From assembly GCF_036507355.1 (NCBI RefSeq), contig NZ_AP027877.1: DNA of 64,000 nt. The stretch is one strand, 5' to 3'. Under the pieces are notes generated by a model, which worked only from the letters and a program-made list of their open reading frames with translations, was not told where the DNA came from and did no database searches. How positions within the stretch are numbered: position 1 is the stretch's first letter; each line of letters starts with the position of its first letter. Source of the stretch: Escherichia coli (lineage in GTDB: Bacteria; Pseudomonadota; Gammaproteobacteria; Enterobacterales; Enterobacteriaceae). Below, piece by piece: positions 48,998 to 51,189 of the stretch. A program made the translations under genes and the position numbers.

Positions 48998-49025
48998 CCC
49001 CCTCATGATGAGGGGGCTTTTTTTA
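48998..49025 (+). terminator. intrinsic terminator of the yeh fimbrial operon
   Basis: Hairpin CCCCCTCAT-G-ATGAGGGGG followed by TTTTTTT. Confidence 0.6.
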
Positions 49026-49361
49026 GCGATGATAAAAAATCTCACCGTCGTAGGCTTTAATGATTTTTCCGTCGGTATTATTGATCAGCACATATGCACC
49101 GCCCATATAGGTCCAGTGGGTTCCGGCGTCAGGTGCGGGCAGGTTACGCAACTGCCACTGCTTAATGTTGTACTCATCGGTACGGTACATCTCTGGTACG
49201 GTGTCACCTGGTTTGAAATGCTTGAAGTCAGCAATGAAGCTGCTTAACTCATACTTTGAAATTCCCGAGGCATTGGTCGAACCCGCGGTGGCTGGTGCGG
49301 CCCATGCTGCGCTGGTTACCAGCAAAAGCGCACCCAGCAACATCTTATTTTTTATGGTCAT
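49023..49361 (-). CDS. rcnB: periplasmic nickel/cobalt homeostasis protein
   Basis: N-terminus MTIKNKMLLGALLLVTSAAWA, 112 aa. Confidence 0.8.
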   Translation of the reverse strand: MTIKNKMLLGALLLVTSAAWAAPATAGSTNASGISKYELSSFIADFKHFKPGDTVPEMYRTDEYNIKQWQLRNLPAPDAGTHWTYMGGAYVLINNTDGKIIKAYDGEIFYHR

Positions 49362-49622
49362 ATACTCTCCACTTTGGGGATCAGTAAAATCAGTCGTATA
49401 TCTTTCCCGCCATACAATATAACCGACAAGAGATATTTTGTTAGTGATCCCGTGATTTCGTAAAAAGTGTAAATGAAAGGATGTAGCAAAAGCATCCTCA
49501 TTGAGCGAGAAGTGAGCGGAATAAGCTGATTTAAGAATCATCCTGGGCTAAAAGGATAGCGAAGCCCGGTGATGCTGCCAACTTACTGATTTAGTGTATG
49601 ATGGTGTTTTTGAGGTGCTCCA

Positions 49623-49898
49623 GTGGCTTCTGTTTCTATCAGCTGTCCCTCCTGTTCAGCTACTGACGGGGTGGTGCGTAACGGCAAAAGCACCGCCGGA
49701 CATCAGCGCTATCTCTGCTCTCACTGCCGTAAAACATGGCAACTGCAGTTCACTTACACCGCTTCTCAACCCGGTACGCACCAGAAAATCATTGATATGG
49801 CCATGAATGGCGTTGGATGCCGGGCAACAGCCCGCATTATGGGCGTTGGCCTCAACACGATTTTACGTCACTTAAAAAACTCAGGCCGCAGTCGGTAA
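49623..49898 (+). CDS. insA: IS1 InsA
   Basis: Identical 91-aa protein to copy 1. Confidence 0.9.
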
Positions 49899-50320
49899 CC
49901 TCGCGCATACAGCCGGGCAGTGACGTCATCGTCTGCGCGGAAATGGACGAACAGTGGGGCTATGTCGGGGCTAAATCGCGCCAGCGCTGGCTGTTTTACG
50001 CGTATGACAGGCTCCGGAAGACGGTTGTTGCGCACGTATTCGGTGAACGCACGATGGCGACGCTGGGGCGTCTTATGAGCCTGCTGTCACCCTTTGACGT
50101 GGTGATATGGATGACGGATGGCTGGCCGCTGTATGAATCCCGCCTGAAGGGAAAGCTGCACGTAATCAGCAAGCGATATACGCAGCGAATTGAGCGGCAT
50201 AACCTGAATCTGAGGCAGCACCTGGCACGGCTGGGACGGAAGTCGCTGTCGTTCTCAAAATCGGTGGAGCTGCATGACAAAGTCATCGGGCATTATCTGA
50301 ACATAAAACACTATCAATAA
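49817..50320 (+). CDS. insB: IS1 InsB
   Basis: Identical 167-aa ORF to copy 1. Confidence 0.85.
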
Positions 50321-50355
50321 GTTGGAGTCATTACCGCGAAGCCCAGGTGATTGTT

Positions 50356-51189
50356 TTATCTCATAATACCCATAAAGCCATGCACTCCCATATACACCCC
50401 GACTAAACCAATTAACAGACTGGAAAAATAGGGGGCGCGTTTAGCGAGAGTGTTAAATCCGCTCCAGCGTTTTGCAACTTGTTGAACACTGATTGCCGCT
50501 CCAACGCCTACTGTAACCAGCGTTAATGCCAGGCCGATGCTGAAACTGACGACCAGTGTTGCGCCCAGTGTCAGGGCTTTCAACTGAATGCAAATCAATA
50601 GCACGGTAATTGCTGCCGGGCAGGGAATAAGGCCACCTGTTAAGCCAAATAACAAAATTTGCCAGTTGGTGACCTCTCTACCATCAAAGCGTCGTTTAAT
50701 GTCATTGGCATGGGCTCGTGCATGGGCATCCTGATACTCTTCGTTGTCGCCATGTTCATGATGGTGATGATGTTCGTGGTCGTGGTCTTGATGATGTTCG
50801 TGATCGTGATGATGGTGATCATGCCCGTACATATTCTCCAGCCAGTTGCGTTCGCCGCGCCAGGTACGCCAGAACATCCAGAAAGCGGTGCTAATAATGA
50901 TCACTGCGGAAATCAACTGGAGCCACGGTTCTGCTGATTGAGCAGTAAAGCGCTTGCTGATCACCATCCCGCCAAAGGCAATCAACCAGACCACTGCGGT
51001 ATGCGAAATGGTTGCTGCCAGTCCGAGCATCACCGCCTGTTTAATGGTGCCTTTGATGGCGATGATAAACGCCGCCATCATCGTTTTTGAGTGCCCTGGT
51101 TCCAGGCCATGAAGCGCACCAAGTAAGATGGCGCTGGGGATGAAGAACCAGGCGTTTCCTTGCTGAAGAAGAGTTGTAAATTCGATCAT
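50356..51189 (-). CDS. rcnA: nickel/cobalt efflux transporter
   Basis: Membrane protein with His-rich loop HDHHHHDHEHHQDHDHEHHHHHEHGDNEE; 277 aa. Confidence 0.9.
   Translation of the reverse strand: MIEFTTLLQQGNAWFFIPSAILLGALHGLEPGHSKTMMAAFIIAIKGTIKQAVMLGLAATISHTAVVWLIAFGGMVISKRFTAQSAEPWLQLISAVIIISTAFWMFWRTWRGERNWLENMYGHDHHHHDHEHHQDHDHEHHHHHEHGDNEEYQDAHARAHANDIKRRFDGREVTNWQILLFGLTGGLIPCPAAITVLLICIQLKALTLGATLVVSFSIGLALTLVTVGVGAAISVQQVAKRWSGFNTLAKRAPYFSSLLIGLVGVYMGVHGFMGIMR

Follow-up and report, generated by a model that had tools for sequence, protein, structure and literature searches.

The window analysed here, a 64,000-nucleotide stretch of Escherichia coli DNA, carries a nickel/cobalt efflux locus whose two structural genes are separated by an insertion sequence. 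The gene for the Ni/Co efflux pump, rcnA (277 aa), occupies positions 50356-51189 on the minus strand. Its product matched NF007454 at 561 bits (cutoff 195) over profile positions 1-283 of 283, placing it in the NicO family. The histidine-rich loop of RcnA is encoded at 50737-50829 on the same strand (31 aa, 16 of them His) by imperfect codon repeats of 6, 18 and 24 bp. In the compared loci RcnA measured 274, 277, 283 or 285 aa, in agreement with the claim of the preliminary description that this loop varies in length; the 277-aa His-tract variant was not on record. The Ni/Co-responsive repressor gene rcnR (51310-51582, plus strand, 90 aa) matched NF011613 over its full length at 197 bits. Two intact RcnR operators of the form TACT-N7-AGTA (PMC7055735; PMC7105576) start at 51227 and 51247 (51227-51261) in the divergent promoter region between rcnA and rcnR. 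Downstream of rcnA, in the same orientation but beyond the insertion sequence, lies rcnB (49023-49361, minus strand), an intact gene for the 112-aa periplasmic accessory protein of RcnA efflux. According to the ORF list its true start is MTIKNK at 49361, and the protein is identical to a PF11776 protein present in 1,653 collection blocks. Gene order, orientation and the two operators are the same as in the K-12 rcnR-rcnAB divergon, and each of the three proteins matches the model of its family. Unlike in K-12, the operon is broken by IS1 and RcnA is the 277-aa variant. As an allele the locus belongs to a minority: it shares 93-95% identity with K-12 and 98.2-98.8% at most with the E. coli examined; for window positions 1-12000 the best E. 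coli identity was 99.1-99.2%.

The interrupting element is an IS1 at 49568-50335, with its transposase genes on the plus strand and hence antisense to both rcnA and rcnB. It is 768 bp long and bounded by imperfect terminal inverted repeats of about 23 bp, GGTGATGCTGCCAACTTACTGAT at 49568-49590 and GGTAATGACTCCAACTTATTGAT at 50313-50335 (ends aligned). This size and the repeat starts GGTGATG and GGTAATG are those of the IS1 family. The insA frame runs from 49623 to 49898, and an A6C frameshift motif, TTAAAAAAC, lies at 49872. When a -1 shift was applied at this motif, an unbroken 232-aa InsAB' frame ending at 50320 was obtained. Both transposase frames matched NCBIfam NF033558, over profile positions 1-81 and 75-199 of 199. 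The element is therefore complete, as had been claimed, with both repeats present and the insA and InsAB' frames whole. With its frames and ends intact, this copy is a candidate for transposition. It was 99.6-99.9% identical to annotated copies of the "IS1-like element IS1A family transposase", and 98.8-99.9% identical to annotated IS1A and IS1B copies. In size, repeats, A6C frameshift and 9-bp duplication it is no different from IS1A/IS1R of E. coli K-12 and Shigella, and the insertion site alone is particular. The preliminary description had left out both the antisense orientation of the element and the usual size of the rcnA-rcnB spacer.

The element is flanked by two copies of GCGAAGCCC, at 49559-49567 on the left and 50336-50344 on the right, which match at nine of nine positions; the probability of such a match by chance is 4^-9, or about 4e-6. 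Exactly 20 bp (50336-50355) separate the end of IS1 from the rcnA stop codon (50356-50358), so that the reported perfect 9-bp duplication and the position of the element between rcnA and rcnB, 20 bp downstream of the former, both agree with the coordinates. The reconstructed uninterrupted site, AAAAGGATAGCGAAGCCCAGGTGATTGTTTTA, which holds a single copy of the 9-mer, was found exactly in seven related loci (L005-L009, L011 and L012). Since the element has its own perfect duplication and relatives retain the exact empty site, the insertion is best described as a simple transposition, as had been proposed. The further suggestion that it was probably recent fared less well. In its favour, a second IS1 copy in the window (36227-36994), 12.6 kb away and inverted relative to the first, is 100% identical to it. 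Against it, the junction is already shared by one other public draft assembly, GCA_905398585.1, whose contig of 10,823 bp differs by 4 SNPs (99.963% identity). The insertion is therefore older than the split from that genome and has been inherited by the lineage. The junction was not found in 5,426 complete E. coli genomes, a junction 35-mer and a flank 25-mer had no exact match in GTDB species representatives, and the junction had no exact match in JGI metagenomes. The target region is AT-rich, with a GC content of 40% in the spacer and 38% in the neighbouring yehA compared to 50.5% in the window. This fits the regional preference of IS1 for AT-rich targets.

Uninterrupted, the rcnA-rcnB spacer measures 217-218 bp. 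After the insertion, 206 bp of native spacer remain upstream of rcnB, which is now 777 bp farther from the RcnR-controlled promoter; that promoter, both operators and rcnA itself are untouched by IS1. The retained sequence contains, 55 bp ahead of the rcnB start codon, a promoter-like site that the insertion leaves unaffected, CTAACA-17-TATATT (49416-49444, minus strand). Its sigma-70-like score is 9/12, and both hexamers are conserved in the window and K-12 alleles alike. A terminator-like hairpin and, after it, a U-rich tail lie in the middle of the spacer on the rcnB side of the insertion (49477-49499, minus strand), with dG -7.0 and z -3.05 in the window allele and dG -12.0 and z -3.97 in the K-12 allele. 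A second, stronger hairpin, whose normal place is after the rcnA stop codon, has been split by IS1: its 5' arm (50340-50352, minus strand) remains with rcnA and its 3' arm (49536-49549, minus strand) lies beyond the element. This hairpin is intact in the empty-site allele (dG -18.7, z -4.5), whereas the K-12 allele folds weakly there (z -0.27). An Rfam scan of the spacer gave no match at E <= 1, and the rcnB-side spacer folded as a whole no better than shuffled sequence (z -0.72). At the left IS1 end an outward-facing -35-like hexamer, TTGGCA (49576-49581, minus strand), stands 17 bp from TATCCT (49553-49558, minus strand), a candidate -10 for a hybrid promoter, part IS1 and part flank, that would be directed toward rcnB; the gap is made up of 8 bp of IS1 end and the 9-bp duplication. 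The promoter scan returned 5 sites overall compared to 3.9 expected from shuffled sequence. As the scan was no richer than shuffled sequence, neither promoter candidate, hybrid or native, is established by it.

Polarity of IS1 insertions is known from classical work on gal and lac. Cotranscription of rcnA and rcnB was reportedly demonstrated by Bleriot in 2011. In two papers the rcnR-rcnAB divergon is described as one in which RcnR, acting at the promoter ahead of rcnA, blocks transcription of rcnA and rcnB alike (PMC7105576; PMC7689651). The expectation in the preliminary description that these co-directional genes would normally be co-transcribed is consistent with the orientation seen here and with the divergon so described. 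Because IS1 is polar and rcnB is under published control from the rcnA promoter, we reasonably infer that Ni/Co-inducible transcription of rcnB would be lost through the insertion. Transcripts from rcnA would have to cross IS1 antisense to its transposase genes, and this untranslated stretch would be polar, so that most Ni/Co-induced read-through into rcnB would be gone. Like the polar insertions in gal and lac, this IS1 lies between the promoter-proximal and the distal gene of one unit, and by analogy expression of the distal gene would be expected to fall here too. In contrast to those cases, the insertion is intergenic, and rcnB keeps its native upstream sequence. Polarity on rcnB may be incomplete, and residual expression could be driven by such incomplete polarity, by the native hairpin and promoter-like site, or by the hybrid promoter.

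The expected metal phenotype follows from reports on RcnB. Deletion of rcnB enhances Ni/Co resistance, according to PMC7917058, which cites Bleriot 2011, and loss of RcnB is reported to lower metal accumulation. Since deletion of rcnB is reported to raise resistance, simple metal sensitivity is not the expected phenotype of the insertion; Ni/Co tolerance is predicted to be unchanged or higher. Loss of rcnB has also been reported to be costly with antimicrobial peptides and boric acid. Our preferred reading, to which we assign a probability of roughly two in three, is that an intact IS1 transposed into the 217-bp rcnAB spacer, duplicating 9 bp, and was since passed down in an IS-rich lineage of the E. 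coli/Shigella type. The element would be polar, with inducible expression of rcnB largely lost. The gene would be left with low, metal-independent expression from the native promoter-like site, from the IS1 hybrid promoter or from both, and tolerance would be the same or higher. As an event, the insertion is routine and ordinary, and its significance beyond strain annotation is slight: it is one more IS1 in an IS-bearing genome. It does provide, in a natural allele, a physical separation of rcnB from the promoter under RcnR control. With this allele one could gauge how far rcnB depends on read-through from rcnA, and ask whether efflux is held back by RcnB in a wild background.

The insertion would instead be nearly neutral for regulation if rcnB were driven mostly by a promoter of its own, in the rcnB-proximal part of the spacer beyond the terminator-like hairpin. 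Both the conserved hairpin and, after it, the conserved promoter-like site are on the rcnB side of the insertion. An NtrC gSELEX peak has been assigned to the rcnA-rcnB spacer, rcnB appears in two transcriptome tables with rcnA mentioned in neither, and Salmonella rcnB is stated to lie outside the rcnR operon. The NtrC peak and the tables suggest that there may be some independent transcription of rcnB. One of the tables, derived from a database, gives RpoE as a positive factor for rcnB. A sigma-E promoter was set aside, however, as the motif GGAACTT-N16-TCAAA had no convincing match in either spacer allele. The sigma-70-like site, for its part, is a weak match. Papers on Dub-seq and on boric acid added no information about rcnB promoters. 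Published control of both genes by RcnR at the rcnA promoter also argues against a dominant promoter of this kind, and we consider it possible but unlikely.

A gain of expression was also considered, in which rcnB would be transcribed constitutively from TTGGCA-17-TATCCT, free of RcnR control, and RcnA efflux would thereby be damped. The -35 hexamer matches at 5/6 positions, the spacing is the optimal 17 bp, and the -10 hexamer matches at 4/6 positions including the key A2 and T6 and is aimed at rcnB. The mechanism, an outward -35 in the IS1 end, goes back to Prentki 1986 as cited by PMC8764528, and there is a precedent in afaA of E. coli ST131, where expression increased by roughly 7 log2 (PMC8764528). 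The arrangement here is alike in its outward -35, its 17-bp gap and its -10-like hexamer in the flank toward the downstream gene. It differs in that the putative -10, TATCCT, is a poor one and that IS1 also severs the normal inducible promoter. By our own estimate, chance alone would place a -10-like hexamer at the needed spacing in a few percent of cases. Most IS1 insertions create no active promoter, and those at osmB and ugd did not (PMC8764528). Any transcript starting here would still meet the terminator-like hairpin in the middle of the spacer. We consider constitutive expression of rcnB from the hybrid promoter quite improbable.

Other insertions in the spacer raise the question of selection. 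Convergently selected IS hits could uncouple or silence rcnB in IS-rich lineages of the Shigella type, which would make rcnB an unlisted pathoadaptive or tolerance locus. On this account the insertion would raise tolerance because RcnB restrains Ni/Co efflux, in line with the increased Ni/Co resistance reported for rcnB deletion. Among near-identical relatives we found at least three independent insertions in the spacer. Close relatives, which differ at 4 variable sites or fewer over 2,985 aligned columns, have been hit independently within these 217 bp: in one case by an IS3-family element at the equivalent of window position 49469, in the other by a different IS1 insertion, 35 bp ahead of the rcnB start codon. 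Elsewhere in E. coli, IS1 has inserted independently at distances of 15 bp and 137 bp from the rcnA stop codon, one IS1 lies within the 3' end of rcnA, and rcnB has been removed by IS1-associated deletions in other genomes. Spacer IS counts in E. coli were taken from junction-specific queries; an 83-genome count that presented the spacer as a hot spot was rejected, as it consisted mostly of IS1 in the neighbouring yehA joined to the match. Against selection, adjacency of rcnB and rcnA was disrupted in just 19 of 5,363 E. coli genomes, and the spacer is hit about 2-3 times as often as expected under uniformity, by our own estimate, uncorrected for clonality. An AT-rich, dispensable region by itself attracts and tolerates IS1, yehA next to it has been struck far more often, and the related genomes are so dense in IS elements that their contigs break at them every few kb. 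The costs of rcnB loss with antimicrobial peptides and boric acid also weigh against a benefit. We regard selection as highly improbable, and the repeated hits would gain importance only through a controlled survey in which they exceeded those in comparable spacers.

Finally, the identical inverted IS1 12.6 kb away might suggest an artefact of assembly, or a composite transposon bounded on one side by the element at this site. This reading has a negligible probability: the element is flanked by a perfect 9-bp duplication of its own, relatives retain exactly the empty site, the two IS1 copies have unlike outer flanks, and the left junction also appears in a second public genome that was assembled independently. 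A composite transposon or an inversion with the second copy was ruled out by the duplication and the differing outer flanks. The window as a whole holds three IS elements within 64 kb of genome.

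In the window, IS1 separates rcnA (50356-51189, minus strand, 277 aa) from rcnB (49023-49361, minus strand, 112 aa, with its real start at MTIKNK), and this is certain. The coordinates of both genes and of rcnR (51310-51582, plus strand) are from the ORF listing. Reading the sequence directly placed the 768-bp element at 49568-50335 (plus strand), between copies of GCGAAGCCC at 49559-49567 and 50336-50344, with the IS1 end exactly 20 bp from the rcnA stop codon. The preliminary description had reported a complete IS1 with a perfect 9-bp target duplication, and this holds. The ends are imperfect terminal repeats, as expected for IS1, insA starts at 49623, a slippery motif (TTAAAAAAC) lies at 49872, and a -1 shift there gives a 232-aa InsAB' without interruption. 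Both frames matched NCBIfam NF033558, identity to annotated IS1A copies is 99.6-99.7%, and every sequence-level test for IS1 was positive. The transposase gene runs antisense to rcnA and rcnB, a point absent from the preliminary description. The rcnA gene and the RcnR-controlled promoter region are unaltered, and rcnB is intact, shifted by 777 bp. Profile searches gave a full-length NF007454 match for RcnA and an NF011613 match for RcnR, and an identical copy of the RcnB protein, carrying PF11776, occurs in 1,653 collection blocks. Both RcnR operators, of the motif TACT-N7-AGTA (PMC7055735, PMC7105576), were found, at 51227 and 51247. All sequence-level features of rcnR-rcnAB are present in the locus, cotranscription being a separate, RNA-level feature.

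Removal of IS1 and one 9-mer yields AAAAGGATAGCGAAGCCCAGGTGATTGTTTTA, which occurs exactly in seven related loci with the normal 217-bp spacer (L005-L009, L011 and L012), in agreement with the simple transposition proposed earlier. Two near-isogenic relatives with an intact spacer (L022 and L023) have a single mismatch over the 3,162 bp compared on the rcnB side. The insertion had also been called probably recent, which stands only in a relative sense. On the one hand, a second copy in the window (36227-36994) matches this IS1 at 100% identity. On the other, a 10,823-bp contig of GCA_905398585.1 corresponds to window 38821-49643 with 4 mismatches, crosses the same junction and extends 76 bp into the left IS1 end. 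The insertion must therefore be older than the split of the two genomes, and the shared sequence indicates that it is inherited within a lineage and not unique to the window genome. The junction was not found in 5,426 complete E. coli genomes, the GTDB species representatives or the JGI metagenomes.

Cotranscription of rcnB (yohN) with rcnA, and its induction by Ni and by Co, have been reported. Polarity is a classical property of IS1 insertions of either orientation and is relieved by rho mutations. Transcripts from the rcnA promoter would have to traverse 768 bp of untranslated IS1; given the classical polarity of the element, metal-inducible expression of rcnB is probably lost, while basal expression may be kept. 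Regulatory uncoupling of rcnB, as the preliminary description had it, is likely but unproven. In the rcnR-rcnAB divergon of E. coli, RcnR acts at the promoter in front of rcnA to block transcription of both rcnA and rcnB (PMC7105576, PMC7689651). In PMC7917058, deletion of rcnB is described as raising Ni/Co resistance and lowering accumulation, so metal sensitivity is not the expected outcome. Costs are also reported: loss of rcnB makes cells more susceptible to antimicrobial peptides and boric acid.

Three features complicate a simple uncoupled reading, namely a split hairpin, possible independent transcription of rcnB and a candidate hybrid promoter. Folding of the window allele revealed a strong hairpin directly after the rcnA stop codon (dG -18.7, z -4.5), which IS1 hit in the loop and 5' arm, so that its arms now lie at 50340-50352 and 49536-49549. 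The split could give the rcnA mRNA a different 3' end. Folding of the K-12 allele is weak at this position, and the strong hairpin is allele-specific. The flank beside the duplication, AGGTGATTG (right junction, 50336-50353), is similar to the IS1 left terminus GGTGATG, so that the left junction regains a near-copy of the hairpin arm. Midway along the spacer (49477-49499) lies a terminator-like hairpin whose folding is significant in both alleles (z -3.05 and -3.97); it is followed by a promoter-like site, CTAACA-17-TATATT (49444-49416), with both hexamers kept between alleles. Both remain on the rcnB side of IS1, and independent transcription of rcnB from the spacer is possible. The literature offers indirect hints of this: an NtrC gSELEX peak is assigned to the rcnA-rcnB spacer, and rcnB appears in two transcriptome tables without any mention of rcnA, one of them giving RpoE for rcnB; no sigma-E motif was found in the rcnA-rcnB spacer. 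The candidate hybrid promoter combines an outward TTGGCA in the left IS1 end with TATCCT in the flank, across a 17-bp spacer made of 8 bp of IS1 and the 9-bp duplication, and it points at rcnB. IS1 hybrid promoters are documented and, according to PMC8764528 citing Prentki 1986, are active only at favourable sites. A promoter scan returned 5 sites against 3.9 expected in shuffled sequence; since this is no richer than chance, no promoter site is established and all are candidates.

Selection for uncoupling of rcnB is a possible but unsupported explanation of insertions in the spacer. The economical explanation is a regional preference of IS1 together with a high IS load, as the spacer/yehA region is AT-rich (GC 40% in the spacer and 38% in yehA, against 50.5% in the window) and dispensable. 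Junction-specific queries found an IS1 end no more than 625 bp from the rcnA 3' end in 12 of 5,426 E. coli genomes. CUWW10 has a simple insertion in the same orientation, with the duplication GCCTAAAGG, 15 bp from the rcnA stop and 5 bp away from the site in the window. HUE1, which was resolved, has one at 137 bp, duplicating AGTGATCCC, and junction queries gave the same gap for L37 and ZH142; in KH_005 the insertion is within the rcnA 3' end. In M24 (resolved; locus L015) IS1 lacks a duplication, rcnB and part of yehA are deleted, and the spacer is joined to truncated yehA. M70 gave the same gap in junction queries, its spacer IS1 without duplication and rcnB missing, and AREA_497 (locus L016) has IS1 without duplication next to IS26, rcnB again missing. 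Normal rcnB-rcnA adjacency is kept in 5,344 of 5,363 E. coli genomes. The spacer is hit about 2-3 times as often as uniformly expected, a rough estimate uncorrected for clonality, and yehA (window equivalent 47907-48941; L001-L003) is an IS1 target far more often than the spacer. Most of the 83 genomes with IS1 that were counted carry it within yehA, at differing positions, and those include the K-12 derivatives NEB Turbo and TG1, O104:H4 outbreak strains and a chicken-isolate series.

Close relatives of the window, variable at only 4 of 2,985 aligned columns, carry an IS3-family element of ~1.2 kb in the spacer at the equivalent of window 49469, with the 3-bp duplication AAG. Other close-relative assemblies have an IS1 left end at a junction 35 bp before the rcnB ATG (equivalent of window 49396). 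The relatives with other spacer IS elements (L018-L020 and L024-L027) form a near-identical clonal lineage whose complete contigs measure 4.80-4.84 Mb. Compared with the complete genomes, two short-read contigs have the opposite end of the IS3-family element towards rcnB. All the mechanisms concerned have long been known: polar insertion, IS-mediated decay in Shigella-type genomes and, as a possibility, a hybrid promoter.

The His-rich loop of RcnA had been described as length-variable, and comparison of loci agrees: RcnA has 274, 277, 283 or 285 aa, with all differences confined to the His tract. In the window this tract (50737-50829) encodes 31 aa, 16 of them His, with imperfect repeats of 6, 18 and 24 bp, and the 277-aa protein has no exact sequence match on record. 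L007 and L008 carry frameshifts in rcnA, located in or beside the His-codon repeat; L008 has the window's loop variant (MYGHDHHHH...), with the frameshift just before it. In L010, rcnA is called as two ORFs.

Identity of the rcn flanks is only 93-95% to K-12 and reaches at most 98.2-98.8% among the E. coli examined; for window 1-12000 the best E. coli identity is 99.1-99.2%, with O55:H7 among the top matches. The window contains two IS1 copies and one IS600, and draft contigs of relatives end at IS elements every 5-11 kb. The source is probably a Shigella-like, IS-rich lineage within the E. coli species complex. The second IS1 (36227-36994, minus strand) has no target duplication, its flanks being CTTCTTCTG on one side and AACTCTGTA on the other. 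Beside it, 3,062 bp of a DUF4132/WGR (molR-like) gene region are absent relative to E. coli O55:H7 CB9615, which looks like an IS1-associated adjacent deletion. IS600 (IS3 family; ORFs of 99 and 272 aa; ~37622-38896, minus strand) adjoins a WGR-domain gene reduced to a 317-aa ORF (38894-39847); the exact 317-aa product, and hence the IS600 junction, is common to three public contigs (L029-L031). Between rcnR and the thiM TPP riboswitch (53857-53953), a block of ~2.3 kb (~51600-53850) has small ORFs of 104 and 115 aa and, in relatives, an additional 79-aa HTH_73 ORF. O55:H7 CB9615 and a subset of E. coli have this block; K-12-type loci lack it, the riboswitch there directly following rcnR. The yeh fimbrial genes are strongly mosaic (window 43907-49573 compared with L004 and L006-L013). 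Some E. coli loci with an rcn region 98-99% identical to the window have a yehB of only 87-92% identity, and the converse was also seen; this pattern of identity indicates recombination breakpoints between yehA and yehB.
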